Positions 8,036-64,000 of a stretch of DNA of 64,000 nt are shown here, one piece after another. This DNA comes from Antedon mediterranea (lineage: Eukaryota; Animalia; Echinodermata): the NCBI RefSeq assembly GCF_964355755.1, contig NC_092673.1:16092948-16156947 (forward strand). Reading direction: 5' to 3'. The position numbers were made by a program, and so were the translations under genes. Within the stretch, counting starts at the first letter, position 1. Each line of letters starts with the position of its first letter. A model generated the notes under the pieces. That model was not told the DNA's origin, ran no database searches, and was given only the letters and a program-made list of their open reading frames with translations.

Positions 8036-8164
8036 TATATATTTAGTATATGTCATATACAAACGTATATAGTATACGAATGTATATGAAACATAGGTTG
8101 TATTTTTGCAAAGGTTTACCTTGGACAACATACTGTACCAGTATATATCTGTCTATATATCAAG

Positions 8165-16700: not shown

Positions 16701-18927
16701 GCCAAACCTAGTAATATTACATGGAATATTCACAGCAATGTTACCATTCTAAAAGAGCAATCGTATAAACAATTGTATATCCCCCAGCTGGCCGTGTGTT
16801 CCTTCAGATCCAACATTTTCCAGTAAATTTTATCAAGTAAATGACAAAAAAATGACAGTATTTATGCAGAACTTTTTATATGGTAATTGTAAGATTTTAT
16901 GCCATAAAGGACAAAAATAATGTTATAAATGTATACCTACCTATGATTTTATATTTTATTTAAATTTGAATAGTAATTAATATTTTTCTTTAGCTTAAAA
17001 CGCTGGCAAGTGAGAATGGTATTGCAGATGAAAAACAACAATCAATCCTTCTTAACTTCCTGTATGATCTTGGTGAAATTGTTTACATGCCGGACAACAA
17101 ATTATTAAAAGATAAAGCGGTGTTAGATCCAATGCAGCTGGTTGAAATTGTCACGGCTTTTGTAACAGTCATTCCACCAGAAGATCCAGTAAGTAGGCTC
17201 ATAAAAATGTTAATGCAGTGTTGCTTGGGAAAATAATAGTACATGTGAATTCCTATAGGCACTGTAGTATCAACAGCAATATTTATCCATGTTCTGGTGG
17301 GGTTTTTTTCAACAGAATTCCTGCATCTCTTTTCAGATTCTAAATTGTTTGATAACTTAATAAACACAAAATCATATGTATGGCTAATTGGCGGTATTTT
17401 TTTTAGCTGCCCATATTTAGGAAGGCTTTTGATAAACTTGACAAGGGCATACTGGAAGAAGACTTGTTGCGTGAATTATGGAAAAAGCGTAAAGTTGACG
17501 AAGGAAAGAATTTTGAGTTTCTTGTAGCACTGATGATTAAATTAGGTTTCATTTGTGAAAGGAAGACAACCAACAGCCAAGATAGGGCAAGTACATCTAT
17601 AGTAAGTTATCTTTTCTAACATGTTATGTTTTGCATGAAGCTAATGTGAAAAAATGATTTTTTATAAGATACATAATTGGTGAAATTTTACATAAAATTT
17701 CTAAATATTTGTAGGGTTATGACATATTTTGGTTAAACGTCCTGCTGAAAGATGTTTTTAACATGTACAGGAAATGATCTTCGTTTTCTTATTAAAAAAA
17801 ATTTAAATGGCATTTTACAAATCAACAATTTCAGGAATCTGTTGGAAAGCGATCATTCTTTGTGCCACTACGCCTTGCTTTCAAGACATCAAGTGAAGTA
17901 AAACCAGTGCCTGATGATTCACAATCTATCAGTATCTACTACGACTTTAAGGGATATCTGCCAGATGTATTGTTTCCATATATGATTATTGATTTCCTCA
18001 ACAAATTTCAAATGAAAGGTGTTGACCCAATACTCTTGTATAATCATGCTGAACTTGACTTCAACCAAGATCATCATGTGAACTTATCTCTTGTCAAATT
18101 TGTGACTATGGACGATGAAAGAAAGTTCTTGTTAAAGGTACTGTATCATATAATTTGTTGTGAATAAGTTATGATTTAATAATAAAAACTTAAATTCAGA
18201 TATCAAAACATTTCTTTTCTTCCTTTTTTAGGTGACTATTAAAAGAACTCCTGCTTCTAATGAAACAAGTAATGATGAACCCTCTTCTGAAGCATGTAAA
18301 GAGGTTTGTTATTTCATATATCAATATTGAAAACTATATCATTTTTTATAGATGTTTTTGTTGATTTGTTTTTTTGTAATTATGACATAGTTTAAAATAA
18401 CTTAAATATTTAAAATCATGTTTGTGTAGTTTACTTGATGCGTAATATAATTTGTAATTTTTATTGATATACATTATTAATTGAATATTAAATAGATTAT
18501 TGACAATTGATTTATAAAAACAATACATCTTTAACAAATTAATGATATAATCTTAATATTATATCAATTTAAAATACAAACAACTGAAAGTACAGTTATC
18601 AAAACTAGTTTATAAGTGATTTTTACTGAAATGTAGATTTTAAAATTTGTGCTATATTGTTTGTGTTAATTGCATGTTGTTGGAAATTAACCTTCAATTT
18701 ATATTGTTAGGTTTTGTTAACGATCCAGAAGTCATTTGAACCTTCTCAAGATGGTGGTAGAAGAGGGATTCAATATGAGAGATGCATACTTTGTGATGTA
18801 TGTAGTGATACATCAGAACAGAAGCACATTCAAAATCTTGGTGATTTCCACGACGAGAAGTTGAAATGCTCCAAAACTGGCACGTATATGAGTATGGATG
18901 TTACACGTTACAAGCGGCTATTTGAAG
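10758..18927 (+). CDS. Roco GTPase gene 1, ROC-COR module B (13 exons)
   Basis: Exons 10758-10923, 11153-11238, 11605-11669, 11823-12210, 13578-13720, 15182-15271, 15518-15697, 15908-16159, 16994-17188, 17407-17601, 17835-18137, 18232-18303, 18711-18927 splice into one open frame. Motifs: GQEGVGKT, VTDGI, WDHGGQ, VGTHKG, VPLKW, FLYDLGEI, LRELW, FFVPL. Confidence 0.9.
11913..12170 (+). repeat. 27-bp coding minisatellite, about 9.5 units, (D/G)NHSKDDDH
   Basis: g(a/g)caaccacagcaaagatgatgatcat repeats inside exon 11823-12210. Confidence 0.95.
16252..16630. mobile_element. Penelope-like terminal fragment in inverted (fold-back) arrangement
   Basis: About 120-bp arms 16252-16366 and 16480-16596 are reverse complements and carry a CTGATGA-stem-GAAAC motif. 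Duplicate at about 61297-61680. Confidence 0.6.
16296..16340 (-). ncRNA. Minimal hammerhead ribozyme core (Penelope-type)
   Basis: Minus strand reads cCTGATGAt-acgacc-ttgatc-ggtcgt-GAAACg. I did not confirm stems I and III. Confidence 0.5.
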
Positions 18928-19511
18928 GTAAGAGTATCAAAACAGACAATTGTATTTTCATTCATTTTTATTACCCCTAACTATAGTAAACAGTGTGAAA
19001 CTAGAGAGTCAGTCAGAAACTACTAAACAAGATTATGATAACTTATGCTTCAAATGTACAATAATATACAAATAATGAATGTTTATGAGTTGGATGGTGA
19101 AAATATTTCATGAGTTGAAAGATTGAATGCTCTAATTTTAACGAGGCAGAGCCGAAATACAAAACATTTATTTTATTCAATTTATTGATCGTTAATCATT
19201 GACAAATGCTAGGCCATGAAGCTAGGCCATTCAAAAAGACAGTGCTCCAAATTTGAACACGTAGTAGAACATTTATAGACGGTGCTCAGAACAAGTTGAT
19301 TTTCAAACCCAATCAGCCAACAATGAATCCATTCAGCAAATAGAAAACATATTTAATTTTAAGAAAAATGTTAAATCACATTTCTGTTCAATCAAATAAC
19401 TATATAAGTCAATCATAGTCTTTTAATTTAACTTGTTTTATTATATTATTGTTTTTGTTATATTTACGTGTTAAATGCAATACTTAGTAATTTTTATATT
19501 TTTTATTTTAG

Positions 19512-19543
19512 ATCGTAAAAGGATCCCAATGGAAATAAGCTAA
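19512..19543 (+). CDS. Candidate short terminal exon (soluble isoform, DRKRIPMEIS*)
   Basis: T-rich tract plus AG at 19510-19511, phase 1 matching the donor at 18927, TAA at 19541-19543, AATAAA at about 19649. Confidence 0.5.
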
Positions 19544-19846
19544 TAAGCTTTTTGGGCTATCCTGGAAAATCTTTTATAAATGTATTATTTGTAATGTCCG
19601 TAATTTATGTTATCACTTTGTATATGTATTTTTTATGATGATTTTCCTAATAAATTCAAATCAAATGTCGCGTTGCAAAAATTCTCAAATTGTTTCCAAA
19701 GAACTGAAAGTGCGTTAAAGCATCATTTGGAATTAGCCCTAACTAACTTGTTTATAAAATAAATTGTTGCATTCATGACTGTGTTTGAATGTGATGTGAA
19801 TTTGAGTATCTATTGAATATATTGTTATATTTTTCAGTAAATACAG

Positions 19847-19876
19847 ATGTTGCTGGAACATCAAGTTCAAACCAAG
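19847..19876 (+). CDS. 30-nt phase 1-1 linker micro-exon (DVAGTSSSNQ)
   Basis: atacag|at gtt gct gga aca tca agt tca aac caa g|gtatgt. Confidence 0.65.
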
Positions 19877-21025
19877 GTATGTTATGTCTTTTATTATTAT
19901 TATAATGAAGTAAGTCAATTAAGACAGAAAAGGATTTTGTGTTATAACCAATTGCATAATATATGGCCATGCTGTATGTAGCATGTTTAAATAGTACATG
20001 CTTATAAAATAAAGGAAGAGCATATCTTTTTGAAATAGACGTCATCTCATTTTGATCATTTTAAACAGTGGTAATTAAGAAGCCAAACAATTAATGATAA
20101 AATCATTACTTTCTCTTATTTTAATTATTTAAAATTATTTTAACACAAAAACATGATATTGATAATTAAGATAATGTAATGAGTGTAAGTAGGTTTACTG
20201 TAGTTTTTTAATTAATATATTAATTATATTTACAGTAAATATAAAATTATTATAGTGTTTCATTTATTTATATTCTAAAAACAATGATTATGATTTTACC
20301 AATAATTCAATAATAATTATACTATTGGCTAGAGCTATCAAACTGACGTTTTCAAGACTGATTTAGGGATTGTTCTTTTTTTTGATGACCACCAGAATCT
20401 CGCACACAAAAACAGCAGCTTCAGTTAATGCAGCTATAAACATTTTTTTATAGCAATTATATAACAAAACTGCTTATAATTATTGACTGCTTTTTCATCG
20501 TTCAGTATATTTATATCTCTCGCCTCGTGATCCAAACGGAAGCCACATGGCCGTGTGCTGAATACGTAATTGAAAAGTTTTGTTGTATTCAAACGTTGAG
20601 AGCGCTACTCCATGTTGATCACATAATGTTCATTATTCACTTGACCGTTTATTAAAATAGTATTTTTTGCAACTTTACTAAACTAGGCCTGGGCCTAAAT
20701 GATAAAAGATCGGTCGGGTTGCAGAAAAATAGTTAACATGGCTGTTAAATTTTAGTGAGGGTGGGGGCTAAAACCCGTCTAAATTTAAATATAAGAGAGT
20801 GATAAATGATACATGATGATGAAACTGACTGGAAATCATTCTTATGGTTTAACCATCACATTTAATCAATTCAATTCAAGAAACATTTATTGACCAAAAA
20901 TATTATATCATAACAATGGCATATAATATATATAGTCGAGAGACTACAAAAGGCCCGATGGGCCTGTCGCTGTAGTCCCTCTTTACATTATACAAATAAT
21001 AATAATACAACACCTTCTGGTACAG

Positions 21026-21073
21026 ATACAGCTTCTGGTGCAGGTGCAGATTCAGCAGAAGCCATTCTGCAAG
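21026..21073 (+). CDS. 48-nt phase 1-1 linker micro-exon (DTASGAGADSAEAILQ)
   Basis: tacag| ... caa g|gtaac, open frame, GC-richer than its flanks. Confidence 0.6.
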
Positions 21074-21993
21074 GTAACAACATTAAAAAAACTGGTATTA
21101 TTGAAATTTAGATGTTTTGCGCCGTGGACAATTTCGAAAGAAATATATTGAATTTTATTGAATATTGAATTTCTAAAAATATTCTTTAACACACTGTATA
21201 TAGGTATATATAGGTAAAAAGCATTTTTAGCAACTTTTTTCATTTTTAACTGTTCAAAAGTAGATGGCAAAACTAGATAATTAACTTTCAAAATGACGTT
21301 AGTAGCAATATATTATTGTTTTCTTGTTTATCAGTGTTTGACTGCTGGCTATGTAGTGTTTACATTTATATCCTATGTAACTGTTACCTCTTGAAATTTT
21401 TGTGTTTTAATCCATGATACACTTTCTTCAAGGTAATTCAGTGATCATTAATTTACTGCCCAGTCCAGAAGGTATGTTGCATCATGTATTTCATTCTTTT
21501 GATTTATTTATTTGACAGTAAAAATGAAAATAATTGAAGCAGGAAAAAAAAGTTTTAAATAATATAAAACTTATTTCCATTTGGGACCCTAACAATTAGA
21601 ATCTAGAAAATATAACAATTGATAAACATGGATAAAAAACTGCAAGCTCAAGAAAACAATAACATACAATATTAACAATATACACAAATTCATAAAATGT
21701 TGTTGGTACAAAGGTGAATTCCAATTTGGTTTAAATGTGTGTATGTTGGTGATTGGTTTAATTATCCTGGGTTAATGAATTCCATGTCTTTTACATTGTA
21801 GTATAAGCTAGATTGTGCCCTGTGCTACTAACATGTGGAAACTTAATGTACATTAGTGAAATAGATAAAACCTAAATCGAGCCAGATTTTAATCTTTGAC
21901 TCCATACGCATGGCTATAGATCCTTCTGTGAGTCAATGTTTAAACAATATACTGGCAATAAATCAACTGTTTAACTACTGCTTGCAATTACAG

Positions 21994-24504
21994 GTTCAAG
22001 TTCAAGTTCAGAACAACATCATAGAAGGTAAATATTTTTTTGATTAACACCACTCTCTTATTACCACACTCGGACTGGTAAAATGTAATTACAGTCTTAC
22101 AGTTTTAACTATAGAGCTACAGCCACTACCGTATAACTCCTATTTAGGGGTGTTCCTTGAATATAAAAATCCCCCTTTTTGTTTTACGGGAAAAACTGTA
22201 ATTTTTTTCACTAAAAAATGTGTACGCATACATAGTGAATGAGTGGCCCATCGGTTAAGACAGTGGAACCGTAAGACATAGCCATAACATCGGCAAGGGT
22301 TCCAGGCTCATTCACTTTATGGTTCAGGTGGTAGAACAATATAAACTGTAGAGTTCCAGTGTACACATCTGGCTCTTTTGCACTTTAAAGAACCTAGTAC
22401 ATCTTTCAAGACGAATAGGGGTTACCCCGGTGTACTAGTATACACACACACACACAGCAACTGTCATATACAGCCACTTATCTAGGGAGCCGCACATCCT
22501 TTAGGGACAAATGAATAAAATAGAAATAAACAAAAATACTTATTGCTGTATGCATGTGATGGTGTTTCTGTGGGATCTCCACTTGTCCTAGTATTACCTA
22601 TATTTAATGACGGAATTGAAAAAGTAAAGTCGGTCTTCCAACAAAGAAAATATTCTCTCCAATTCAATGAATACACAACATTCATTTTTGTCTGTTTAAT
22701 CCCTACTGTCTTAAAGCAGTTATGTAATCACAACAAAATTGACCACTTCAACCTTGAATTTGATGTCAAGGCAAGGTGGCTGGAAGAATGGCGGCGCTCA
22801 AATATTCAATTATTAGGTTTTGGTTGGATTATTCGTTGGTCCATCTCATAGCACAAATTTTCTTGTTTCAGAAAAGACTGGTCATCCATTAGTGTCACTT
22901 TAAATGTTAAAATAATATCCTTTTAAAACAAAATCAATTTGAAAGTAAATTTATCACGATGACATCAGTTCATTGCTTGGAAGATGTATTATACTTTATA
23001 TGGCCTTGTTTCTTTTGAATAGTGTCGAATAAACCGTTTGTTTAGACTGACCGCATTTCTGCTAAATTTGTGCTTTTAAATAACTCTTTAAATTGGTGGT
23101 TAGTCGTTGACAAAATTACATTACCCAAAATGCAATGCAATCAAGCAGTCAAACATATAAGGCCCTGTTTCTGCTGCCAAAGCTGCTGTTGAAAGTGAGA
23201 GGCGTAAAACTTCCTTTATTGCGACTTTTAAATATCGAACAAATAAATGAATGGCAATTTAAGTAAAAAGGATGAATTTTAAAATGACCACCAAAGAAGT
23301 ATTGTTAGCAGAAAAGGGGTACTAAAAATACCATATTTTGAGCAGTTGCAGCAGAAACAGGCCCTAAGATTCTATATACAATAAAATATTATTTTGCATT
23401 GCAGCTAAGTAGCACAGCAATAACCAGTTAAATGGCATTCTAGCCTCCAATCATTTAAGCCCGTTTTTCTGTCGATCGTTAAGTTGCGTTCAGTTTAAAA
23501 TCGTTAACGATTAACAGGAAAAGGGGGTAAAAATCAACTTTAAAAATCATTAAAATCTGCAATAGTTAACAATTACGGTTGTTACGATCGTTAAAACTGA
23601 CCAATCAAATGGTCCACAAATTACATCATTGCAGTTTGTGAAAAAAATAGGTATGCGCTGACAATTCTTGAATTTTTACAACGCGACGATGTTTTTCACT
23701 TCATTGTACACTTTCAAGGCATGATATTTCAAAACAACAAGTGCAAGTCAAATTAAATTATAATATTACAACAATTAAATTTAATGTGTGTCTTTAATGA
23801 AGGCGTAGATTAAGATATCAACGAAAGCATGTCCTAGGCTGGGTTGAAGCATCAAAACCCGTAACTTTTTCAATTTTCACGTGGCTGGCCTTGGTTTTGC
23901 AACACTTCACGTCCGCGTGTTCCTGCAACGCTCGGAAGAACCAAGAAACTATGAATGATCGCGTAAAATATGTGTAAATATTAGCGGTCTGGCTTGATCA
24001 TCGTCATTATTATTTTATTTTCAACTTTACCGATTTTAAACTCGACGCAACTAAATGATTGACAGGAAAACAGGCTTTATGTATTTTTTACTGTTATTTT
24101 CACATTACCATTTATAAATGCCAGTTAAAAGTGGTTATTCCCATTTCTGCTGCCAAGAAATTTGGGGTAATTAATTCACACAGTTATTAATACATTTTTT
24201 TGTGTTACTGCATTCAAATGGTTCAATAACTTTTTATTTATTATTTCACACCTAAGAACATATGAAATGATTCCCATTTCAATGATTGAGAGTACAATGA
24301 TGATGTGCTACTGCTGGTGAATAATGTGTGTTTAAATACCAACCAATGTGAAAGGGAACATTTTGAATGCCTTCCTTCCACATTCCATTGGAGTTCACTC
24401 CATTTAATAGAAAGTCAATCTATCATTCATTATAGTCATATACTAATTATGTGTACATCTTTATTTATAGGCTGACTAAAAAGGACATTTTCAAAGGTAA
24501 TTTA

Positions 24505-24538
<34 letters not shown>

Positions 24539-25199
24539 CCAAAGGCAAATTACTACTTGTCAAAAAAACTTCATTTTTGAACAAGAGGCAAGAGTTATAA
24601 TTTGTGATTTGTAATTTTAAAACATAATTTGATTTAATGGGCAATTTTTTTGCTGGGAGTAGTTTAAAAAACCTATTTCTTTTCAAATTCACTCGTTTGA
24701 TTTTCGCGTTGCTGTTCTATTGTTAGTCAACTGAAGCTATTGTTAATTGAAAGGCTTGTTACATAACCATTGCACCAAACTCGCATACACATGCTTGTAA
24801 TGATATTAGCCTAAATCACAAACAGCATTAAGACACACACAAATATATATATTTTTTTTTTATCGGAGAAATCTTATGTAGGAGAATTTTACAGTAGGCG
24901 GAGGTATGCACTCTCGGAGTGGCTTTCTAGTTATTAATTGCAACAATTTTTTTTGTAGTCCCTAAATTGATAGAAAAATTTAAACAAAACAGGGAACCTT
25001 TCTCATAATTTCTCTTTTAATTTCAGAGTGTATTATTCTGGCAATTTGTTTGCTTTTGGTCATAGTCATGGTAATCTTGATAAATGAATATAAAGAAATA
25101 GCAGATGCTGTCAGTAGCATAGTATTGGCTGTAACTGTGGTGGGATATGGCTTATATGTATGTAGAAAAATATACTCTTATCATCGGAGAGAGCGATAA
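21994..25199 (+). CDS. 3' cassette 1: two micro-exons plus a terminal exon with two predicted TM helices
   Basis: 21994-22027 (phase 1 to 2), 24471-24496 (2 to 1), 25027-25199 encoding ECIILAICLLLVIVMVILINEYKEIADAVSSIVLAVTVVGYGLYVCRKIYSYHRRER*. Confidence 0.75.
22240..22520 (+). mobile_element. tRNA-derived SINE
   Basis: A-box-like tggcccatcggttaag, B-box-like ggttccaggc, A-rich tail. Copies at about 27498-27780 and (internally deleted) 36734-36900. Confidence 0.6.
23161..23364. mobile_element. PIF/Harbinger-like MITE
   Basis: TIR ggccctgtttctgctgc / gcagcagaaacaggccc, TAA on both sides, absent in copy 3 (about 37050). Confidence 0.75.
23458..24076. mobile_element. PIF/Harbinger-like MITE
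   Basis: About 30-bp imperfect TIR (agcccgtttttctgtcgatcg...), TTA TSD, empty site at about 37148 in copy 3. Confidence 0.75.
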
Positions 25200-27250
25200 T
25201 GAGACTAATTCATGTCAACTGCCTTAACTGGCAATTCAACCATCTACAATTGCTTAGAACAAGAGAAAAGACATTATAAATCAATGACTCTAGCCATCAG
25301 TGCAATCTCGGTGGTTCAGAGAGCTGTTAGTCTGGTGGTAATGGGTTTAAGTCCCACCCGAGAATTACTTTTTTCAGTGTTCTCAGTATGTACTTAGTAT
25401 AAAGTAAAGTTACGTCAGAGTAGGGCAAAAATCTGACCAATTACAAAAGACATTATTCATCTAGCTATACTACTCAAATTGTTTGTAACAGATTGTTTGT
25501 TAGCATATACTGTACAACATTCCAAAGATTGTAATTGATTTAGTAGTATTACCATGGACGAAATATATACAGATATTGTACTGTATATTTCCTCCATGGT
25601 ATTACCACCAGCTAGGAAGTCATGTTTATTTGTATATTATATATTGTTTGTTTGTATATTTGTCTATGGCAAAGGTAAAGGAATTAAATAAAACTTTGTC
25701 ATACTGTAATTCTAAAGAAGTTAAATTTGGGTCAAAGGGTAAGCTTTGCAGTTGAGCTTGACAGCTATAGACAGTAGTCCAACTCAATCAGGAATGCCGA
25801 ATCACTCGCCACATTCGAACAACTCCTCAAATGCCACCTTTTAATTTGCATTTTCAACATTTTTGCATTTTTTGTTGACTGTTCAGCGCTTAGAGACAAC
25901 CTGGATTTAGCGCTATATAAATTGAACATTATTATTAAATATAAGAAACAATAACGATTAAGTGTGTTCATTTTATTTGTCACATCATTACTTATCAGAG
26001 GCTTTATACATAGGCCTATATAATCTAGTATTCATAGGTGTGTGTTTGCTAACAGAAACCAAATCCTACTTCAAGTGCACAGACCATAGGCCCCGCTAAA
26101 TTTTGCAAATTGTAATGCAAAAGACAGGACACTAATTTTAGTCATGGTAATGAGTTGCTTATTTCTTGATCATTAACTTTTATTATTAATTTCAAAAGTT
26201 AAAAATGTTAAAAAATAACTTTATACATGAAAAAGATGCTTAGAAAGAAATAGGCTCACATGTTTAACAACAGCAACCATAATTTCCCACTTGACACAAT
26301 TTATTGTGGAGGACAGCAACACCATTGGAAGCACAAAATCAAAAATAAAACATTATTATTAAATAAATATATTATTAGTTGTACAAGTTGAAATTTTAAT
26401 TTGTAAGGAAAAAATATTTTGGGATGGGCAATTTTTTGAATGATTGTGCATTAAAAACAAAATATACACACTACAAGGCTATTGTTAAGAGATGAAAAAT
26501 GTATTATAAATTATAGAAATATAATGTTGTTAGCCATTTTACCATAGATAAATAATTTTATCAACCCGGAGTTACCCTTTAAAATTTCTTTGATGTTGCT
26601 GCTTTTTAGACATAAACGTTGATTGCGCCCTCAATAAAGTTCAGTTCAACTATGCGTAAAACCATAGTTGCCATTTATATTTATTTATTTCGTTTTCTTT
26701 CAGTAGGGTAGCCCTCTCCGTAATAAAATAAAACTGCTCTTCCGAGGGGGCCTACGACACATTTAAACATAACTTTTAAAACAACTTAAACTAAACTCCA
26801 AAGCATGTTATTAGGTGATCATTTAGAATAAAATGATCACCTATTGTTATAATTAGAATCTAGAAAATATAACAATTGATAAACATGGATAAAAAACTGC
26901 AAGCTCAAGAAAACAATAACATACAATATTAACAATATACACAAATTCATAAAATGTTGTTGGTACAAAGGTGAATTCCAATTTGGTTTAAATGTGTGTA
27001 TGTTGGTGATTGGTTTAATTTGCCTGGGTTAATGAATTCCATGTCTTTTACATTGTAGTATAAGCTAGATTGTGCCCTGTGCTACTAACATGTGGAAACT
27101 TAATGTACATTAGTGAAATAGATAAAACCTAAATCGAGCCAGATTTTAATCTTTGACTCCATACGCATGGCTATAGATCCTTCTGTGAGTCAATGTTTAA
27201 ACAATATACTGGCAATAAATCAACTGTTTAACTACTGCTTGCAATTACAG

Positions 27251-30200
27251 GTTCAAGTTCAAGTTCAGAACAACATCGTAGAAGGTAAATATTTTTTTGA
27301 TTAACACCACTCTCTTATTACCACACTCGGACTGTTAAAATGTAATTACAGTCTTACAGTTTTAACTATAGAGCTACAGCCACTACCGTATAACTCCTAT
27401 TTAGGGGTGTTCCTTGAATATAAAAATCCCCCTTTTTGTTTTACGGGAAAAACTGTAATTTTTTTCACTAAAAAATGTGTACGCATACATAGTGAATGAG
27501 TGGCCCATCGGTTAAGACAATGGAACCGTAAGACATAGCCATAACATCGGCAAGGGTTCCAGGCTCATTCACTTTATGGTTCAGGTGGTAGAACAATATA
27601 AACTGTAGAGTTCCAGTGTACACATCTGGCTCTTTTGCACTTTAAAGAACCTAGTACATCTTTCAAGACGAATAGGGGTTACCCCGGTGTACTAGTATAC
27701 ACACACACACACACACAGCAACTGTCATATACAGCCACTTATCTAGGGAGCCGCACATCCTTTAGGGACAAATGAATAAAATAGAAATAAACAAAAATAT
27801 TTATTGCTGTATGCATGTGATGGTGTTTCTGTGGGATCTCCACTTGTCCTAGTATAGTATTACCTATATTTAATGACGGAATTGAAAAAGTAAAGTCGGT
27901 CTTCCAACAAAGAAAATATTCTCTCCAATTCAATGAATACACAACATTCATTTTTGTCTGTTTAATCCCTACTGTCTTAAAGCAGTTATGTAATCACCAC
28001 AAAATTGACCACTTCAACCTTGAATTTGATGTCAAGGCAAGGTGGCTGGAAGAATGGCGGCGCTCAAATATTCAATTATTAGGTTTTGGTTGGATTATTC
28101 GTTGGTCCATCTCATAGCACAAATTTTCTTGTTTCAGAAAAGACTGGTCATCCATTAGTGTCACTTTAAATGTTAAAATAATATCCTTTTAAAACAAAAT
28201 CAATTTGAAAGTAAATTTATCACGATGACATCAGTTCATTGCTTGGAAGATGTATTATACTTTATATGGCCTTGTTTCTTTTGAATAGTGTCGAATAAAC
28301 CGTTTGTTTAGACTGACCGCATTTCTGCTAAATTTGTGCTTTTAAATAACTCTTTAAATTGGTGGTTAGTCGTTGACAAAATTACATTACCCAAAATGCA
28401 ATGCAATCAAGCAGTCAAACATATAAGGCCCTGTTTCTGCTGCCAAAGCTGCTGTTGAAAGTGAGAGGCGTAAAACTTCCTTTATTGCGACTTTTAAATA
28501 TCGAACAAATAAATGAATGGCAATTTAAGTAAAAAGGATGAATTTTAAAATGACCACCAAAGAAGTATTGTTAGCAGAAAAGGGGTACTAAAAATACCAT
28601 ATTTTGAGCAGTTGCAGCAGAAACAGGCCCTAAGATTCTATATACAATAAAATATTATTTTGCGTTGCAGCTAAGTTGCACAGCAATAACCAGTTAAATG
28701 GCATTCTAGCCTCCAATCATTTAAGCCTGTTTTTCTGTCGATCGTTAAGTTGCGTTCAGTTTAAAATCGTTAACGATTAACAGGAAAAGGGGGTAAAAAT
28801 CAACTTTAAAAATCATTAAAATCTGCAATAGTTAACAATTACGGTTGTTACGATCGTTAAAACTGACCAATCAAATGGTCCACAAATTACATCATTGCAG
28901 TTTGTGATGACAGTGGCGTAACAGGCGGGGGGCAGGGGGCGGAATACCCCCCCCCCCCCCCTGGCGGATTTTACCGGGTTGAGAAGCGTTCGATCGGGCT
29001 GGGTAACAAGTCAAAAAAATAAAATAAAATACAAAGAAGGGATAGAAGAAAGAAAAAGAAAGAAAATATAAGAATAAAATATACGATATACGGTATGATA
29101 TGGCTTCAAATGAGTCACAGTACAGTATGATATTCAAGTAAGATGATATGAAATACACAAAATCCTGACTGACCACTCTTGGGAAGACGCACTGCTTATC
29201 AGTACATTAACATGCGGTCAGTTGACTGTGGTTTTTGGCGTCTTTTATCTAAGCCGCCATCGCGGGCATCTCATACACAATTGTGACGCTGTGCTGTGCG
29301 TGTGAGGCCACCTTAAACAAGAAATATTTCTTACAAAAAACGCCGCGTAACTTTTTGACTGGACAGTTGTAAGAACAGCCTTCATTAATCTAATATAATA
29401 GGTCGGCCAATCAAAACGCAAGTGAACAATTGGGACTTTACTTGTGATTTATGTCATTGGCCTGTCAGCACAGTCGTTTCTTTCTAGAATTAAACGCACA
29501 AACTTGTATTGGGAATAATGTATGTTTATGTGGTTATTACTATCGCATTTAGGTATTGATAATAATAATAATATGGCTTTTGAATATATAATTACTGTCT
29601 GTAGAATAACGTTTATACATTTTCGGTTCGCGATGAAAAGTTATATGAATGGATTTGTAATATAGGTATTTATAATAATAGTATATGGGTTGTATTATTG
29701 CTAAGCTATCACCAAATCGCGTTATAACATTATTTCACAGGGTTTTTTGCACCATTGATCAATACCAAACGCGTATCTGTATTATAGTTTTTAATGAATC
29801 ATTACATTACTAAAAATACCCAATTAAATCAATCGCGTCAGTCCAATTCCGACTTATGTTTCGATCACATAGTTCTGTGTCTACACTGTCCCAACTAGTT
29901 TAACAAAAAAAGTGTGATGTGCCCAAATATGGTAGTGATATGCCCGAATATCGTAGTGATATGACATCGTCATGTCTATATAATATGGGCACATCATATT
30001 TAGTTTGATAGTATAGACAGAGCTTAAGGATTATATTTAAAAAATGTTTTCTTACATTTTGAAAAAAAAGTATTTATTTGTTTATAAGCCCAATTTTCCA
30101 GTCTTAATTTTACATTTTGAAAAAAAAGTATTTTATTTATTGATAAGCCCAATTGTGCAGTCTTATTTTACATTTTGAACGAAAGTATTTATTTGTTGAT

Positions 30201-33200
30201 AAGCCCAATTTTGCAGTCTTATTTTACATTTTAAACGAAAGTATTTATTTTTTGATAAGCCGAATTTCCAGTTTAATAATAATGACCCCTTCCACAGTGC
30301 TTATACCATATACATTTTACATGATATTGACCGTGGGTTCTTTACGCCTCTGATGCATTTGTTTTTATTGTACCTTTTTAATAAATTATTATATGTTTAG
30401 GCCAAATCACACCCAATTTAATGAAACGGTCAGATTCTGATTTCAATTGAACGAAAGTACAGTAGTACTGTATTATTCATTGATAAGCCAAGGGTCCCAT
30501 GGCGTTAGCCGATATCTTGAGCATTTGACTCATGTCAACCTGTAACACAAATCATTCTTCAAAATCTAAAGAAAGAACCTCACACGTCTTTTTTGTGAGT
30601 GATACACTATGGATATGCCCACGAAAATAATATGTGGACATTGCAAACAATCATAGGCCTACAGTAACAAACATAACATGGCTAATAAGCATAGCAATGA
30701 CTGGTTTGTTTTCTAGTGGATTTTTATTTACTTTAGCATGTAGAATAAAACTAGTAACAGTGGCTATATTAATAATTATACTGATTATCCTTGATGTTAT
30801 CGCGTCTAATAACAAAATATTTTGTTGTTGATAAGCCCAATTTTGCAGTCTTAATAATGACCCTTCCACAGTGCATTTTACATGATATTGACCGAGGGTT
30901 TTTACGCCTCTATAGCCACTGATCAATACCATAATTAATGTACTTTTTTTAATGAAAATTGAAATGTTTCAACATACCCAATTCAAAAAACGGTCCGTTT
31001 TCGAGTTCAATCTTTTGATTAGAGAGGTTGGAGTTTCATTTTGAACGAAAGTATTTATTTGATTGATAAGCCAAATTTCTAGTCCTAATGATTTGAGATT
31101 CAACGGGTTTTGCTTTCAATTGTATAATAATATAATTATATATATATATATAAATATAATATTAAGTATAATTATGAATTCACCAACACTTTCAGGCCCA
31201 ATAACAATGATCCCGGGCCCGAGTTTTTGTAGACCGGACTTCCATGCACAGCCACATGTTAAGGAATATGAATCTCTTTATGATTTTAATATGGTTCGAA
31301 ATTACACAACAACGATTAGACAGCAACTGTGCAAGAGTCCAACTAATAAAATCGGAATGATCAATTAATTAAACATTTACAGCATAAGGCCCATACACTA
31401 GGACGATAACGATCGACGATATAGACAAATATGCATTTTTAATACATAAACCAAAAGAAATATAAACAATTCCTTTGATGAAAATTATATTTTCACACGT
31501 CCAATCAAATGACGTCATGATTAGTAAGACCATTAATATCGTGACAATACAGCGATTTTATTGTTTTTATTTATCATGACGTCATTTGATTGGAATTTGA
31601 AAAACATTATTTTTATCAAAGACAGCATAAATGATTATCCTATAGGTCTAGAACGAAAACCTTCTAATTTCTTTTGGTTTATGTAAAAAAAATGCATGCT
31701 ATATATTTATCGTCCGTCGTTATCGTCATAGTGTAATTGGGCCTTTATACAAAAAAAATAAATTGATTACGAAGTTACATGTCATTTTCACCTATCACCA
31801 AAAAACTAACACTAATTAATTGTTACGAAGCCAATTTATATTATATATTTCATTAAATCTGAACTTTACGGTAAATGAAGAGTAAGTATCAGTTAATATG
31901 AATAATATAACTAGTAGGTCTATGAACTTGCGTCCAGACACAGAACTGTGACATTACTATCATAAATGTTGAAACCACTTATAAAACCTTTTTTTAAAGA
32001 AAATATAATTGTATTAGGAGAAGGCTAATAAACAAATAGATAATGTACAAACCTTTTTCTGGATTAATTAATGGAGCACGCGTTAATAGTAATCTGCTGC
32101 TGCTACCTAGACTGATTGTTCACCTTCTGACGATAATTGATTAGACCCCCCCCCCCCCCCACGGCATCTGATAACCAAAAAAAAATTTACCAGGACTGTT
32201 TCAATGATTTAATATCTGACGGCGTATTATTATAACATTGGCCTAGATTGACAGTCAAAAGAAAGTCATTGTAAATACCTCCCTTTATGTTGACAGAGCC
32301 AAAATAAAGTTTTGACCATTATCGAATGATTATTTGACTTATTATATTATACTTATTATAACACCGGCCTGGTTGACAGCAAAAACGAAGTTATTATTTA
32401 TTGAACAAGATTTTACAGATTTCCGTCTACATCTCAATAATACTGTATTATCAGCAAAGGCTTTCATATAGACTCTTTTCTCCCAGACGTTTTTTGGGTC
32501 CAGCAGCTACCTATAAATTATAGTCGAGTTTCCAAATTCACAAAACTGTCAGCCTTAGATACTAAAGCTACCGCTATGAAACAGCTTATTAATGAATATG
32601 TCCTCCTGGGACATAGCTGGCTAGAGCCGCGGCGCGAAAAATACACTCCTACTAATCGTATGTAACGCGCTAGAGATCAGCAAAATGAACGTACTTTCGT
32701 GGCTGGCTGTCACTCCAATACTCAATCTTTCACAGGCATACTAACACAACACTACGATTGTTTACTACAGGTCACGTCTAGTCAAGCCTTAATAAATTTA
32801 ATTAATATAAATCGACATAAGAATATAAAGTATATATTAACTAAAATATAAAAACCTAACACTAAATTTACAAGATAAATTCTATTTGATAACTGCTGAA
32901 CATCGTGGTTCTGGAGCTAGCCGTACACAGAGCATAGTTGTTTGCTTGACATAAAAGGGTATTCCCCTACACAGGTCTCTGCGTGCGTGTGACGTGCCCA
33001 GCCAGCTGCTTGATAGTATAGAGAGAAAGCATGCAGCGCACGACGCAAGTGCAAGATGCAATGGTTGAGTGAATTCAGGGATCACCTTAATTCCATGGTT
33101 TGTTACCTAAACACCACATGATGGTGAATATGCCTGTTAAAGTCTCAATGATACGATCCCTTAATGTACCATGTTGTTGCTAGGAGGCTTAAAGGGAGGA

Positions 33201-35265
33201 GGGATCTAGCCTAATTTCGGTCGGCAAGAGAATGCCGTCCTCTGACAATTTAAGATCGGCAATAAGGTCGGCAATTGAAATTCGTGGGCTGGAAATTTCA
33301 CCAAATTATATAGTTCATAAACAAAAGAGTTTAGCCGGAAATGCGATTTGCGGCCATACATAGGCCTATAGAGAAAAAAAAAATTCGAGGGTATGGTTCC
33401 ACTAAACAATTTAACGATCCACCCCGCCGTCAAACCTGGTTACGGCCCTGTTTCAGTCTTCTAACCGGAAAAATTACTACCTTTGCCAGGTGCGGATCCA
33501 ATGTTAGATTGGGTTTTCACATGTTCAAATGTTATGTCACCTGAGTTTTTAACGGTGGAAAATGTACGATCATTTTGCTGATTGCTGTGCAATAAATGGG
33601 AGTGTTATTTCCAGGCCAACTACTACTAGTTAGGCGCCATTTATCATGAATTTTATGTGCGAGAGTACCATTTCCGACGATCTAGGGGTGTCATTTACCA
33701 AAATTCGCTTCGCCACAGCCCCCACCATGGGGGGGGGGGGGGGCTGGGGCTCAAGTACTTGGTGTCTGGAAGGATTTTCCCCTCTTTGCCCCCCCCCCCT
33801 GACAAGACCCCCTTGTTACGCGGCTGTGTGATGATGATGATGGTACGCGCTGACAATTCTTGAATTTTTACAACGCGACGATGTTTTTCACTTTTTTGTA
33901 CACTTTCAAGGCATGATATTTCAAAACAACAAGTGCAAGTCAAATTAAATTATAATATTACAACAATTAAATTTAATGTGTGTCTTTAATGAAGGCGTAG
34001 ATTAAGATATCAACGAAAGCATGTCCTAGGCTGGGTTGAAGCATCAAAACCCGTAACTTTTTCAATTTTCACGTGGCTGGCCTTGGTTTTGCAACACTTC
34101 ACGTCCGCGTGTTCCTGCAACGCTCGGAAGAACCAAGAAACTATGAACGATCGCGTAAAATATGTGTAAATATTAGCGGTCTGGCTTGATCATCGTCATT
34201 ATTATTTTATTTTCAACTTTACCGATTTTAAACTCGACGCAACTAAATGATTGACAGGAAAACAGGCTTTATGTGTTTTTTACTGTTATTTTCACATTAC
34301 CATTTATAAATGCCAGTTAAAAGTGGTTATTCCCATTTCTGCTGCCAAGAAATTTGGGGTAATTAATTCACACAGTTATTAATACATTTTTTTGTGTTAC
34401 TGCATTCAAATGGTTCAATAACTTTTTATTTATTATTTCACACCTAAGAACATATGAAATGATTCCCATTTCAATGATTGAGAGTACAATGATGATGTGC
34501 TACTGCTGGTGAATAATGTGTGTTTAAATACCAACCAATGTGAAAGGGAACATTTTGAATGCCTTCCTTCCACATTCCATTGGAGTTCACTCCATTTAAT
34601 AGAAAGTCAATCTATCATTCATTATAGTCATATACTAATTATGTGTACATCTTTATTTATAGGCTGACTAAAAAGGACATTTTCAAAGGTAATTTAATTT
34701 ATATATATATAAATCCAAAGGCAAATTACTACTTGTCAAAAAAACTTCATTTTTGAACAAGAGGCAAGAGTTATAATTTGTGATTTGTAATTTTAAAACA
34801 TAATTTGATTTAATGGGCAATTTTTTTGCTGGGAGTAGTTTAAAAAACCTATTTCTTTTCAAATTCACTCGTTTGATTTTCGCGTTGCTGTTCTATTGTT
34901 AGTCAACTGAAGCTATTGTTAATTGAAAGGCTTGTTACATAACCATTGCACCAAACTCGCATACACATGCTTGTAATGATATTAGCCTAAATCACAAACA
35001 GCATTAAGACACACACAAATATATATATTTCTTTTTATCGGAGAAATCTTATGTAGGAGAATTTTACAGTATGCACTCTCGGAGTGGCTTTCTAGTTATT
35101 AATTGCAACAATTTTGTTTGTAGTCCCTAAATTGATAGAAAAATTTAAACAAAACAGGGAACCTTTCTCATAATTTCTCTTTTAATTTCAGAGTGTATTA
35201 TTCTGGCAATTTGTTTGCTTTTGGTCATAGTCATGGTAATCTTGATAAATGAATATAAAGAATAG
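27251..35265 (+). CDS. 3' cassette 2: near-identical duplicate of cassette 1, terminal exon truncated after TM1
   Basis: Exons 27251-27284, 34663-34688, 35192-35265. A 1-nt deletion (gaatag versus gaaatag) creates TAG at 35263-35265. Confidence 0.6.
29870..30027. mobile_element. MITE (family also at about 39412-39543)
   Basis: tgtctacact... / ...agtatagacagagct ends, internal gtgatgtgcccaaatatggtagtgat repeats shared with 39418-39470. Confidence 0.55.
30048..30275 (+). repeat. About 57-bp tandem repeat, about 4 units
   Basis: ttacattttgaa...aagtattttatttgttgataagcccaattttgcagtctt repeated, with isolated units at 30460, 30820 and 31040. Confidence 0.75.
31386..31746. mobile_element. Fold-back MITE
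   Basis: aaggcccatacactaggacgataacga / tcgttatcgtcatagtgtaattgggcctt, with arms complementary along most of the length. Confidence 0.7.
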
Positions 35266-36455
35266 CAGATGCTGTCAGTAGCATAGTATTGGCTGTAACT
35301 GTGGTGGGATATGGCTTATATGTATGTAGAAAAATATACTCTTATCATCGGAGAGAGCGATAATGAGACTAATTCATGTCAACTGCCTTAACTGGCAATT
35401 CAACCATCTACAATTGCTTAGAACAAGAGAAAAGACATTGTAAATCAATGACTCTAGCCATCAGTGCAATCTCGGTGGTTCAGAGAGCTGTTAGTCTGGT
35501 ACGTGGTAATGGGTTTAAGTCTCACCCGAGAATTACTTTTTTCAGTGTTCTCAGTATGTACTTAGTATAAAGTAAAGTTACGTCAGAGTAGGGCAAAAAT
35601 CTGACCAATTACAAAAGACATTATTCATCTAGCTATACTACTCAAATTGTTTGTAACAGATTGTTTGTTAGCATATACTGTACAACATTCCAAAGATTGT
35701 AATTGATTTAGTAGTATTACCATGGACGAAATATATACAGATATTGTACTGTATATTTCCTCCATGGTATTACCACCAGCTAGGAAGTCATGTTTATTTG
35801 TATATTATATATTGTTTGTTTGTATATTTGTCTATGGCAAAGGTAAAGGAATTAAATAAAACTTTGTCATACTGTAATTCTAAAGAAGTTAAATTTGGGT
35901 CAAAGGGTAAGCTTTGCAGTTGAGCTTGACAGCTATAGACAGTAGTCCAACTCAATCAGGAATGCCGAATCACTCGCCACATTCGAACAACTCCTCAAAT
36001 GCCACCTTTTAATTTGCATTTTCAACATTTTTGCATTTTTTGTTGACTGTTCAGCGCTTAGAGATTTAGAATAAAATGATCACCTATTGTTATAATTAGA
36101 ATCTACAAAATATAACAATTGATAAACATTGATAATAAATTGCAAGCTCAAGAAAACAATAACATATAATATTAACAATATACACAAATACATCAAATGT
36201 CATTGTTACAAAGGTGAACTTTCAATTTGGTTTTAAATGTGTTTATGTTGGTGATTGGTCATTGCAGTATAAGCTAGATTGTGCCCTGTGCTACTAACAT
36301 GTGTTAACTTAATGTACATTAGTGAAATAGATTAAACCTAAATTGAGCCAGATTATAACCTTTGACTCCATATGCATGGTAAAAGATCCTTCTTTCAGGC
36401 AATGTATAAATACAATTACTGTACTCAACTGTTTAACTGTTGCTTGCAATTACAG

Positions 36456-38327
36456 GTATTGCTACTTCAAGTTCAGACCAACGTCGTAGCAGGTAAATAT
36501 TTTTTTGGGTAACACCACTCTCTTATTACCACACTCGCACTGTTAAAATGTAATTACGGAATTGTTTTAACTATAGAGCTACAGCCACTACCGTATAACT
36601 CCCATTTAGAGGTGTTCCTTGAAAATAAAAATCCCCATTTTTGTTTCACGGGAAAAACTGTATAATTTTGTCACTAAAAAATGTGTACACAATGTAGTAA
36701 TATATATAATGTACTGTACAAGATACAAGTGAATGAGTGGCCCATCGGTTAAGACAGTGGAAGAACCTAGTACATCTTTCAAGACGAATAGGGGTTACCC
36801 CGGTGTAGGCCTACTAGTATACACACACGTCACACAGCAACTGTCATATACAGCCACTTATCTAGGGAACCGCACATCCTTTAGGGACAAATGAATAAAA
36901 TAGAAATAAACAAAAATACTTAGTGCTGTATGCATGTGATGGTGTTTCTGTGGGATCTTTTGCTTCTAAATAACTGTTTAAATTGGTGGTTAGTCGTTGA
37001 CAAAAACCGTTAACATTACCCAAAATGCAATGAAATCAGGCAGTCAAACATATTAAGATTCTATATACAATAAAATGGCCATTATTTTGCGTTGCAGCTA
37101 AGTTGCACAGCAATAACCAGTTAAATGGTGTTCTAGCCTGCAATCATTTAGGTTTTTTACTGTTTTTTTTACATTGCATTTATATATGCCGGTTAAAACT
37201 ACTTCTGCCAAGAAATTTGGGGTAATTAATTCAAACAGTTATTAATACATTTTTTACAGCAGAAACATGTCCTAAAATTATTTTGTGTTACTGCATTTGA
37301 ATGGTTCAATAAATTATTATTATTTCACAACCGGAAATTTAAGGATATGCTGCATAACCAGGCATATTAGAACTCAATGTAATAATAGTTTTTTTAACTT
37401 GTTTATCTAGGACGCCGTTCTGCAACCTATGGGTCGCGACCCAATGTTTGGGCCGCGGAAAAAAAGTGATGTGTTGTGAAATTGTTTCCGATACTGAAAC
37501 TTTTTATCAATCATGCAACATACAATGATCTATATGTGAAATATTCTCAGTTTTGTAGAATAGACAACGCTGATTACATTTTATATCTACAGGCTACAGG
37601 GGAGGGGGGGGGGGGGCTGTAAGCTCAAATACGCAATTTTGGGTTGCGAGAATTCCCAAAATAGGATCATGGGGTCGCGGTCAAAAAAGGTTGCGGAATG
37701 CTGATTTAGGCCATTAATAACACTATTAGTACATTGAAATATACTTTTAACATGTTGCCATGTCATGAACAATTTGTGGTCTAAATGTAGGCCTATGATA
37801 CTAAACTTGTAAGCAAAATGTCGCAGGTACAAGTAGAAATCAATGTTATATTTATATTGTAAGTATTTAAATGATATACCAAATTAAAACCAAAATTTGT
37901 CAAAAATGTTTTTAATTATATGTACAATTTTATTTATAGCTTGAAAGAAAGGATGTGGACATTTTTGAAAGGTAATTCCACTTTTCTACTTTAAAAAAAA
38001 ACCAATCCCTTTTTTTTTAATGGAACTACTGCTAATGTGATTTATAATAAACTATTAGTAACCCGTGCTCCGCACAGTCTTTTTCTAACTTAATATGTGG
38101 TTATACTTTGCATGGGCAAGTATAATAAAAGCGCACTCTGATAAAAGTACTTTGACAAATTATCAAAATAAAAACAAATTGTATCACAAATAATAATTCA
38201 CCGTTTGATTTCAGAGCACTGGAAGATAGTTTCATCAGTTATTATTATTATCTTACTTGCAATCTTCATAATCTTGATAATTGTATATGAAGTAATACCA
38301 GCAATTCCCAAAGGTATTGATTTGTAA
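36456..38327 (+). CDS. 3' cassette 3: diverged micro-exons plus a single-TM terminal exon
   Basis: 36456-36492 (phase 1 to 2), 37940-37971 (2 to 1), 38215-38327 encoding EHWKIVSSVIIIILLAIFIILIIVYEVIPAIPKGIDL*. Confidence 0.65.
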
Positions 38328-38856
38328 CTGTTGTTTCATTTATTTTGTACGACAATTCAACAATTACTACAACAATATATTTGCTCCCTTACCGGTATTG
38401 AATACCTGGTATATTTTATTTGGTAGACATTTTTTAATTTCAGATAGTTTAAATTTTTTATTTCTATTTCTACCTGATGAAATTAATTGATAAAACACAT
38501 TTAGTACAACTAAAATTAGAAATGTTTTCAGTAATAAAGACCCATTCCTTTTGATCTTAAATCCAATTTCGTCTATAATTTAATTGTGTAGGCTGTTATG
38601 CCTCTTACATCGGGGAAACTTCCCGACATCCAAAGAAACATGTTTGCAAAAATGTTTTTTATCAAACTCAAAGATTATTATAATTTTATTTTATTATGCT
38701 GTTGGAAGTTTGGCAACATTATTCACGACATGACCTTAAACACTTCAGTGTCAGTCAAGGACTTACAAAAGTTGGAAAATCTCCGTAAAAGCAGCAGCTG
38801 GTACTAAACTACTTAAAAAATTGTACATTATATTTTTACTTTATAATTGATTTCAG

Positions 38857-39068
38857 AGATCTTGAAGATAGTTGCAGTAGTTTGTGTTGTTTTATGCGCA
38901 ATCTTTGCAATCATGATGATTGTATTTGATGGAGTAGTAGCAAGAATTGGCAACGGTATTGGTTTCTTTGTAACTGTTGTTTCATTTATCGTAGTACTTG
39001 TACTTAGTGTAAATGAGAAGTCTCCTACTCAGTCTCTGACAGCTGACAATTCAACAATCAATATCTAG
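38857..39068 (+). CDS. Alternative terminal exon 4 with two predicted TM helices
   Basis: gatttcag|ag atc ttg aag..., phase 1. Encodes EILKIVAVVCVVLCAIFAIMMIVFDGVVARIGNGIGFFVTVVSFIVVLVLSVNEK...*. Paralogous to 38215-38327. Confidence 0.7.
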
Positions 39069-40065: not shown

Positions 40066-40568
40066 TGTTACCGTAGGCGTCCATCATAAATAAATTACAA
40101 ATTTTGTAGATACTGATGTTCCTTTATTTATTCTCTGAACTATCTCTTGTATCTCTACAAATTACAGTATCATTAGCAACTTGAATAAACACCGTGAAAA
40201 CTATAATAAAACAAAGATTAGCATTACAATGTAGGCCTAATCATATCATCATCGTACAGGCAGACAAGCACAGGTCTGACTCATGGGGCCGGGGAACATG
40301 ATACCCTAAGGCTTAGGGCTAGCTCTCAGCAATGAAGTAAAACTCAACTAATTAAAAATACAAGTCATAAGTTATAATTACAATCACATGAATAACCATG
40401 TGTAAATACCTTGTAGCCTTATTGGAGCCTATGGTAAAGATACTTTTAACAATGATTATCTCTAAACTTTATGTCATAAAAAATGTCTTATAAAATGTCT
40501 TATTCTCTCTTATCACTTTTTATCTATTTGAACTCTAGAGGGCCTCCTGTAAGTAGGCTGCAGTTGCA
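40066..40568 (-). repeat. 3' LTR
   Basis: No difference from 43604-44106 seen by eye. Confidence 0.93.
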
Positions 40569-40580
40569 CTCCCACCCAAA

Positions 40581-43500: not shown

Positions 43501-43625
43501 AGTTTTACTTCAGTAGCAATGCTAATTGACAGGGCCTTAGCTGTAGGGCGTCTCTCACTCTGTTCTCTTAGATTCATTGAGTTTTCATCAGCTAAGTTTT
43601 CACTGTTACCGTAGGCGTCCATCAT
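40581..43625 (-). CDS. gag: BEL/Pao Gag fused to an AKAP9/pericentrin-like coiled coil (1014 aa)
   Basis: DUF1759-type capsid region (PPIFNGDPLKYYDW...LEKRYG...ILQKLP) and three zinc knuckles (CFMCKMNNHHLSDC, CFSCLQHGHVSRNC, CKICQRRHPTSLH), followed by about 390 aa of E/K/Q-rich heptads. No protease, RT, RNase H or integrase motifs. Confidence 0.9.
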   Translation of the reverse strand: MMDAYGNSENLADENSMNLREQSERRPTAKALSISIATEVKLLSQTQRKAQEASSELEDVPSDEFEIQTALCKAKAALKEYSDAWCVLNKLYAQDRDGIHREDHLENENIYLTIANSIQASITSAMDKAHALALECQASKSAASKSSCQSIVSIKAQAVANAAAANKTAQFVEKMAKQKADLTAKEAEMEIKKAEARLEEIRREAQQRTEHAKAEAEFKVLEAKQAAAVENARVDAIQQEIQNGYREIMTTPHQTSNDHALRFRNLTKPQPLMTQTQATTAQPTMPQNQSSSTTDLNALAEAFSSAFSMNRIPAPEPPIFNGDPLKYYDWNASFRCLIENKGISKADRIHYLKRYIGGPAKEVVSGYFLLPGEHAYENAKAVLEKRYGNPFIVSEAFRDKLDSWPRIQARDYNGLRRLSDFLNQCNIAMKEMKGLEVINDSRENRKILQKLPDWLVNRWQRNAVSAMQIKGSYPTFNDFSTFLTTEAEIVCDPVTLIPENETKFTEKSSRYRNQSQTLATSISGMSSCFMCKMNNHHLSDCRAFAKKPETEKQQYIKQNGLCFSCLQHGHVSRNCNQKSICKICQRRHPTSLHVKERDSAHEMTEAQMQVIKLQETVTKKETLLQDLATKYAKKNDELAEIKEERDLVKRKSDDELAYMNKQLQQAVASNPPNISEQLALLHAELDETYGQQIVMIKSQLQERHQNEMQELKKKCEEDAETNNKIRDALEQNLKELQDQLDEKEMDLEACQNIQKDFEDQVALLNNHNKELTEKMEKEEDVTLQLHRELDEANQEIQKKTSELDERVTQFIDEKERLENEYRKRFEDESAHQEDIHRIALNQQRSEVVAEIDRKMKPKVEEVEDHFKVQFCTEKSDKENEFVQEFQNIRQQLAESHAEEIEAVTKKITDELTEKHEIMLEEETKKLFKGINDISEEKVSTEQNRNKDWIENQGKELKEQIVNIKVELQQVNEKNSKIQTVNLFFIVLVNIVNILPVLHCLCLFWQGWELRLNHR

Positions 43626-48396: not shown

Positions 48397-48530
48397 AATG
48401 CAACACATTTCTTTTATATTTATGTTCCATTTCAATGTTTATGTGTTATTATGTGTTTATCCATCTGTATTAATTATCAAAAGTCATAGATAAATGTCGT
48501 AATATACTGTGTGAATGTTTTTCTTAACAG

Positions 48531-52910: not shown

Positions 52911-52961
<51 letters not shown>

Positions 52962-63962: not shown

Positions 63963-64000
63963 GTAAGAGTAACAAAACAGACAATTGTATTTTTATTACC

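Follow-up and report, generated by a model that had tools for sequence, protein, structure and literature searches.

Membrane-anchor exons stacked behind a Roco gene of Antedon mediterranea: a probable record of tail birth and death

The 3' region of a Roco gene of the feather star Antedon mediterranea (Echinodermata) was analysed in a window of 64,000 nt (NCBI RefSeq assembly GCF_964355755.1, contig NC_092673.1, forward-strand positions 16,092,948 to 16,156,947; coordinates below count from the first letter of the window). Beyond the last COR exon, candidate exons for several C-terminal ends (named S and T1 to T4 here) lie at 19512-39068, and an earlier note on this DNA had proposed that choice among them yields soluble or differently anchored isoforms. 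We read these downstream exons, with moderate confidence, as a record of tail birth and death, that is of duplication, divergence and decay with T1 as the dominant end, rather than as five working outputs. The observations behind this reading include the single public isoform, the frameshifts in T2 and T3, a 5'-truncated micro-exon (m2), a partly deleted second copy of the gene and the varied tails of the family. A more ambitious proposal, that the gene picks among at least two positively selected, divergent anchors (T1 versus T4, perhaps with a soluble end) by alternative last-exon splicing within a tail-exchanging cluster, is possible but tentative.

A search with one COR exon retrieved 30 proteins, all 30 from Antedon mediterranea and 24 encoded on a single 36.2-Mb contig; the 100% match, P0001 (XP_071947615.1, 1681 aa; relatives are numbered in the same way), maps exactly onto the window over 1545 residues. 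Its public cluster has one member or isoform, which ends in cassette 1 with a tail of two transmembrane (TM) segments. The exons of this 3' region and of the two Roc-COR modules of the gene are on the plus strand. From the last COR exon (18711-18927), which has canonical splice ends and ends in phase 1, the public model runs through micro-exons m1 (19838-19876, phase 1-1; donor rank 2 of 1176, near-same peptide in P0002), m3 (21433-21471, phase 1-1), A1 (21994-22027, phase 1 to 2) and B1 (24471-24496, phase 2 to 1) to the terminal exon T1 (25027-25199), skipping m2 (21026-21073). Further downstream lie cassette 2 (26851-36064), with A2 (27251-27284), B2 (34663-34688) and T2 (35192-35265), and cassette 3, with A3 (36456-36492), B3 (37940-37971) and T3 (38215-38327), followed by T4 (38857-39068). 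Open in-frame paths lead from the shared phase-1 donor to S, T1, T2, T3 and T4. Every exon listed in the earlier note is present with canonical AG/GT ends and the phase given there, and its coordinates and its scheme of three cassettes plus an extra terminal exon were borne out by the sequence check; where it counted two phase 1-1 micro-exons, however, there are three candidates (at 19838, 21026 and 21433), of which the public model uses the first and third.

Transcript support was found for T1 only, from the public model and from contigs of run X1 over 15100-26800, the interval on which contigs of three of the five listed runs (X1, X2 and X4) were placed. No run is recorded as RNA; X1 was taken as RNA by guess, with 31-letter words assumed for the splice predictions, and was treated as RNA-containing because its contig ends fit splice junctions, while the X2 and X4 contigs run unbroken through the T1 acceptor, as DNA would. 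A 441-nt X1 contig lies on T1 from contig position 61 (window 25025), the length of B1 fits the 60 unplaced upstream letters of X1 record 6, and X1 intron contigs end at 21458 (in m3) and 22021 (in A1). Splicing of A1-B1-T1 predicts contig position 61 and the boundary at 22021, both of which are exact; m1 or m2 spliced into m3 predicts 21458, again exact, whereas a direct joint from COR to m3 would predict 21459. X1 records 6 and 7 cover 25025-25904 without a gap, including the site that is deleted in T2, and carry cassette-1-specific bases past 25896, so that the 3' untranslated region (UTR) of T1 reaches at least to 25904. Depth was 143-144 in the T1 and UTR contigs versus 6-11 in the intron contigs, values used only as a contrast. 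The COR-to-m1 joint was absent from the best 15 of 187 listed joints, the top ones being repeat-derived. Together, the contig boundaries indirectly show that m3 and A1-B1-T1 are spliced in one probable RNA run. Peptides of S, A3, B3, T3, T4 and m2 occurred in none of the 185 fetched proteins.

TM segments were called by a hydropathy scan, which reproduced the TM counts first reported for T1 to T4 (2, 1, 1 and 2). T1 encodes an intact two-helix hydrophobic tail with a basic C-terminus, and its hydropathy peaks of 3.4 and 2.0 mark predicted C-terminal TM segments after COR. A profile built from seven paralog tails, none of them from this gene, placed T4, T3, T1 and T2 as the top four of 2013 window frames (E 6e-15, 1e-6, 6e-6 and 0.09, respectively), and the four are therefore homologous rather than chance matches; judged from sequence, they are not four independent anchors. 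T2 is a T1 copy with 193 of 194 aligned positions identical; owing to a 1-nt deletion within a short A run, its frame ends after helix 1. T3, aligned to T4 at the DNA level, is a two-helix exon with a 4-nt deletion, and its helix 2 is still recognisable on translation in the shifted frame. The supposed 1-TM tails thus have one TM segment each by hydropathy, but both are frameshifted 2-TM exons, and because of these frameshifts A1-B1-T1 and A3-B3-T4 are the only intact paths. T4, the best match of the paralog-tail profile, is an intact two-helix terminal exon of the family type, with a poly(A)-type hexamer downstream at 39688.

The candidate stop exon S (19512-19543, 10 codons) is not part of P0001. 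Its acceptor scores highest among 1015 AG sites, and a poly(A)-type hexamer follows at 19649, 106 nt past its stop; a soluble form is possible for these reasons. In DNA run X4, however, the depth at positions on both sides of S reaches tens of thousands-fold (long low-copy contigs are at about 120-380), so S may belong to a dispersed repeat. The idea that S is the end of a retroelement was unsupported: its hairpin was no better than shuffles (z -0.68), and three metagenome matches were unrelated, prokaryotic-looking open frames. Micro-exon m2 has an acceptor that ranks 303 of 1015, and its frame runs on upstream as PSGT, matching a longer segment of P0002; an insertion (about 20855-21010) likely replaced its 5' end and left a relic.

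That S, T1, T2, T3 and T4 are all used, the frameshifts being adaptive conversions of a hairpin into a single anchor, is very improbable. Both frameshifts do stop shortly past helix 1, which leaves a plausible tail anchor, and single-anchor ends are found in three other Antedon models (P0057, P0076 and P0142). However, T2 shows no sign of adaptation, matching T1 at every position but the deleted one, and a 4.9-kb insertion interrupts its A2-B2 intron; T3 has a weak acceptor (rank 125), and its helix 2 is recognisable but out of frame; the form seen in the X1 contig is that of T1, with the deleted base present; and S may lie in a repeat.

Cassette 2 is a very recent tandem copy of 21594-25896; over 4,265 nt, 19 substitutions and 7 indels separate it from cassette 1 (0.45% substitutions; BLAST identity 98-99%). 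The insertion in its A2-B2 intron (28911-33826) has terminal inverted repeats and an 8-bp target duplication and is presumably hAT-like. Divergence of this size, with large indels, would also fit two alleles, and the T2 deletion sits in a short A run, so cassette 2 could be an assembly artefact, in which the other haplotype was set in tandem with the first, and the T2 frameshift could be allelic or stem from an error in sequencing. We regard this explanation, which is compatible with the other readings, as improbable. Contig depth is a poor measure of copy number, but in X2 it was 10.8 and 7.2 at the unique upstream flank and link and about double (20-33) in the duplicated parts, and in X4 it was again higher in the duplicated parts (251-295 versus 123). 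Moreover, an identical stretch of 30 nt is present at the starts of cassettes 2 and 3, as a crossover junction would produce.

B3 encodes a basic-hydrophobic stretch of the family type ahead of the anchor. Because a similar stretch stands at the equivalent place in P0017, P0022 and P0142, cassette 3 looks ancestral and cassette 1 derived. Identity to the P0002 tail is 41% for A3-B3-T4 and 31% for A1-B1-T1, versus only 19% between the two. A3 is homologous to A1, and the cassette 3 micro-exons are indeed 3 and 6 nt longer than those of cassette 1, as had been noted, but the 6 nt of B3 are the net of three gaps, and the core common to B1 and B3 is read in a different frame in each. We rejected the preserved frame alone as proof that both cassettes are in use; since B3 has the family form and B1 looks derived, frame preservation can be explained by selection on the expressed cassette 1. 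No protein matched the T4 exon in a search, which is weak evidence as the query was short and hydrophobic.

Between cassettes 1 and 3, 73 of 1,122 aligned intron positions differ (6.5%). The micro-exons have diverged further, with 7 substitutions in 34 nt between A1 and A3 (21%; p 0.014 versus the 7.7% flank rate, flanking introns being at 6-9%) and 7 differences in 26 nt between B1 and B3 (27%; p 0.003 versus the same rate). Over 40 codons, T3 and T4 show 25 replacement and 3 silent differences (pN 0.29, pS 0.10; Fisher p 0.017-0.032, simulations 0.012-0.028) in tests with small counts and several comparisons, for which gene conversion is another possible cause. Across helix 1 and its flank, 8 of the 11 changes remain hydrophobic, and a COR exon taken as control shows conservation between the paralogs in the window (pN 0.01, pS 0.04-0.05). 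The pN/pS comparison gave p 0.02-0.05 for T1/T4, on an uncertain alignment, and was not significant for T1/T3 (p 0.16-0.27) or A1/A3 (p 0.42). The excess of pN over pS between T3 and T4 points to diversifying selection on the anchors. The interpretation in the earlier note was partly supported: its suggestion of diversified tails was upheld, in that they are homologous and, from the exon divergence above that of introns and the T3/T4 pN/pS, appear diversified under selection. As far as such comparisons go, the selection results favour diversified anchors and would indicate past use, not simultaneous use in one gene.

A two-way switch, in which m3 is spliced to A1-B1-T1 or to A3-B3-T4 (T3 being skipped), perhaps with a soluble form via S, is rather doubtful. 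One GTPase body would then carry either of two very different anchors and probably reach different membranes; by general targeting rules, T1 with its basic end and T4 with a helix 2 that is longer and more hydrophobic could direct the protein to different membranes. The low identity between the two intact paths fits such a switch, as do their intact splice sites and downstream poly(A)-type hexamers, the faster divergence of the exons than of the shared introns, and a rough neutral model in which A3-B3-T4 would have survived intact since its split from cassette 1 with a probability of 0.12-0.17. However, the public cluster is without a second isoform, a transcript must pass two T1-type ends and about 15 kb to reach T4, and the intactness of cassette 3 is equally explained if it was recently the tail of this gene or of a body-deleted neighbour.

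Several points weigh against the birth and death of tails. A3-B3-T4 is intact with usable splice sites, and its rough chance of neutral survival is low. No donor paralog for T1 is evident, because the DNA-run depth over T1 fits about two copies, although this is a weak indication. No acceptor in the region is stronger than that of S. Rare variants are lost from contigs, and the run contigs cover 15100-26800; support for the COR-to-m1 joint comes from the public models P0001 and P0002. Finally, exon divergence above that of introns and the T3/T4 excess of pN argue that several tails were under selection, possibly side by side.

The tails of the wider family vary. Among 31 Antedon models with the COR-end motif, 8 have the TM module (4 of these also a DED-like domain), 15 have DED-like domains only, 3 have a death domain and 5 are short, the DED labels resting on sub-threshold Pfam matches for some members and, for the others, on similarity as we read it. 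On a COR tree, in which 9 of 27 branches are open and from which 6 of 37 proteins were omitted (five without the COR-end motif, and P0030, which is too short), TM tails are scattered: TM-only and TM plus DED each need three changes, at least two of them forced by strong branches. Tail labels required 13 changes on this tree versus a shuffled mean of 14.3, and 30 of 200 shuffles were as low, so the labels are not clearly clustered. P0012 and P0142 share 247 of 272 residues and then continue into different anchors. Of 141 further profile matches (ten of them named), three had a C-terminal hydrophobic segment, all from Antedon, and two Anneissia relatives scanned had no such segment, one of these models apparently ending before the COR-end motif.

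The COR-end motif recurs behind the two-helix module of P0009, P0010 and P0030, and in P0009 and P0030 DED-like domains come after this second copy; the anchor can thus lie between COR and death-fold domains. The predicted fold of P0010 has low confidence (pLDDT 54, with helices 618-640 and 643-665 mostly near or under 50) and was not used. P0024, with an N-terminal kinase, and P0025, which is OGFOD2-like, are Antedon Rocos on other contigs with an unusual order and may be model fusions.

The second, partly deleted copy of the gene (47351-64000) encodes P0002, of which 784 of 917 residues were mapped; its tail lies beyond the window, and the protein model carries a single tail. This copy is segmental, and of its Roc-COR module 1 only 48407-48559 and 49381-49756 remain. 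The public model of P0002 begins after the P-loop exon (53534-53782), which is present with a Q-to-P change in the P-loop.

Under the birth-and-death reading, unequal recombination in a cluster of about two dozen paralogs would copy and exchange the tail module, the phase-1 boundary after COR permitting such copying and swapping. Anchors in use would be diversified by selection; most transcripts would end in the nearest cassette, where poly(A) signals are present, and the distal copies would then decay, A3-B3-T4 being a previous or orphaned tail. Tandem partial duplication is here indistinguishable from fusion with the tail of a deleted neighbour. In the protein, the hairpin may hold a dimerising Roc-COR GTPase (a dimer model is given in an excerpt of PMC4104024) on the cytosolic face of an internal membrane, where the anchor would act alongside the death-fold tails of paralogs or in their place, with signalling in immunity or cell death as the likely role. 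Those death-fold tails fit the immune role that had been suggested for this gene.

If the gene does choose between anchors, the membrane-spanning tail would serve a double Roc-COR sensor as its variable surface in an arms race, and a T1/T4 switch would offer a simple test case for splicing-controlled relocalisation of an innate-immune GTPase; if that switch is false, the array is ordinary, yet it clearly captures how 3' ends are born and die. The Antedon locus mixes anchors with death-fold tails, and the anchor appears to have diversified while the COR exon stayed conserved, which suggests that echinoderm immune GTPases vary in their membrane targeting or intramembrane contacts. It also provides natural membrane-tethered Roc-COR proteins for comparison with LRRK2, which needs membrane recruitment.

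The body of P0001 has the order ankyrin-RocCOR-RocCOR, with Roc directly followed by COR (Pfam Roc E 1e-24; COR-A E 5e-32, in two stretches; Ank_2). The ankyrin N-terminus (135 aa) is encoded upstream of the window, the first Roc-COR module by 12 exons at 886-5824 (residues 136-794, an exact match; Pfam Roc, COR-A and Ank_2) and the second at 10758-18927 (residues 796-1578). The two modules are complete yet divergent, and according to the public model the joint between them (5824-10758) is a 4.9-kb intron. The G1 P-loop, G2 Thr and G3 DxxG were found in both, at residues 173/198/280 and 833/858/1064, respectively. The guanine-specificity Asp of G4 lies in the consensus THxD; module 1 has THMD, and module 2 has THKG without the Asp, which is absent from 23 of 26 motif matches in P0001-P0037. 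Where the usual Asp is missing, as in the G4 exon of module 2 (15518-15697), nucleotide specificity could be altered.

Other elements were observed within the gene and its copy. Partial extra first exons of Roc module 2 (7904-8031 and 51537-51664; 77% identity) end before the P-loop, and in gene 1 this partial copy is followed by a 461-codon reverse-transcriptase frame (8090-9475; Pfam RVT_1). An acidic, Asp/His-rich exon of 27-nt repeats lies within Roc (11823-12204 and 56940-57434), with copy number differing between the paralogs; a repeat inserted in Roc is also known from an Ectocarpus ROCO, according to an excerpt of PMC3341825. An intronic element with inverted arms is at the equivalent site in both paralogs (16242-16607 versus 61287-61654) and also matches in the opposite orientation. 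About 1 kb downstream of T4 lies a very recent long terminal repeat (LTR) element (40066-44106) with two identical 503-bp direct repeats and a 1026-codon minus-strand frame with DUF1759; no reverse-transcriptase match was found by Pfam. We take this element to be BEL/Pao-like.

Anchor-exon switches are well known in secreted versus membrane IgM, Dscam exons 17.1/17.2 and SLMAP TM1/TM2, and splice variants of Miro1 reportedly go to peroxisomes. In each, one body receives a spliced choice of anchor or localisation, as the earlier note proposed for the Antedon gene; those are demonstrated, conserved switches, whereas in Antedon expression supports only a single path, and two of the four anchors carry frameshifts. 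Among immune GTPases, the GIMAP genes form a tandem cluster in which C-terminal TM segments number from none to two, depending on the paralog. Both are tandem clusters, but GIMAP is a different GTPase class in which the anchor varies between genes and not as an array within one gene. In the full-text literature searched, with most subscription journals outside it, we found nothing on crinoid Roco anchors or within-gene Roco anchor arrays, nor an animal Roco cluster with diversifying, exchangeable anchors.

Aplysia has Rocos with TIR and death domains, according to excerpts of PMC9334734, and we found clusters of mollusc Roc-COR-Death proteins. They resemble the Antedon proteins as kinase-less Roc-COR fused to immune signalling domains in lineage-specific families; the excerpts leave a C-terminal anchor unmentioned, whereas Antedon has anchors.

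A close likeness is to the clustered ROCOs of the brown alga Ectocarpus, for which excerpts of Zambounis et al. (PMC3341825) describe a group with one or two predicted C-terminal TM segments, which were recruited twice and replaced another C-terminal domain. The statement that Roco proteins are usually cytosolic therefore needs this caveat. Brown algal ROCOs also show exon shuffling of leucine-rich repeats (LRRs) and alternative splicing, as excerpted from PMC11378527. Judging by the excerpts of both papers, the two systems share clustering, fast birth and loss, predicted C-terminal TM segments, exon-level modularity, diversifying selection and a proposed immune role. In the Ectocarpus excerpts the shuffled, spliced and selected units are N-terminal LRR exons, whereas in Antedon they are C-terminal anchor exons stacked in one gene. 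No LRR family was detected by Pfam in the 18 proteins scanned, and the N-terminus is ankyrin, not an LRR array of 72-nt exons. Antedon differs further in being an animal, in its death-fold alternative tails and in the two Roc-COR modules of this gene. Even without a switch, an animal Roco expansion appears to have gained C-terminal anchors independently of brown algae, and the Antedon gene likely works like a TM-anchored Ectocarpus LRR-ROCO by convergence, without being a member of that family.

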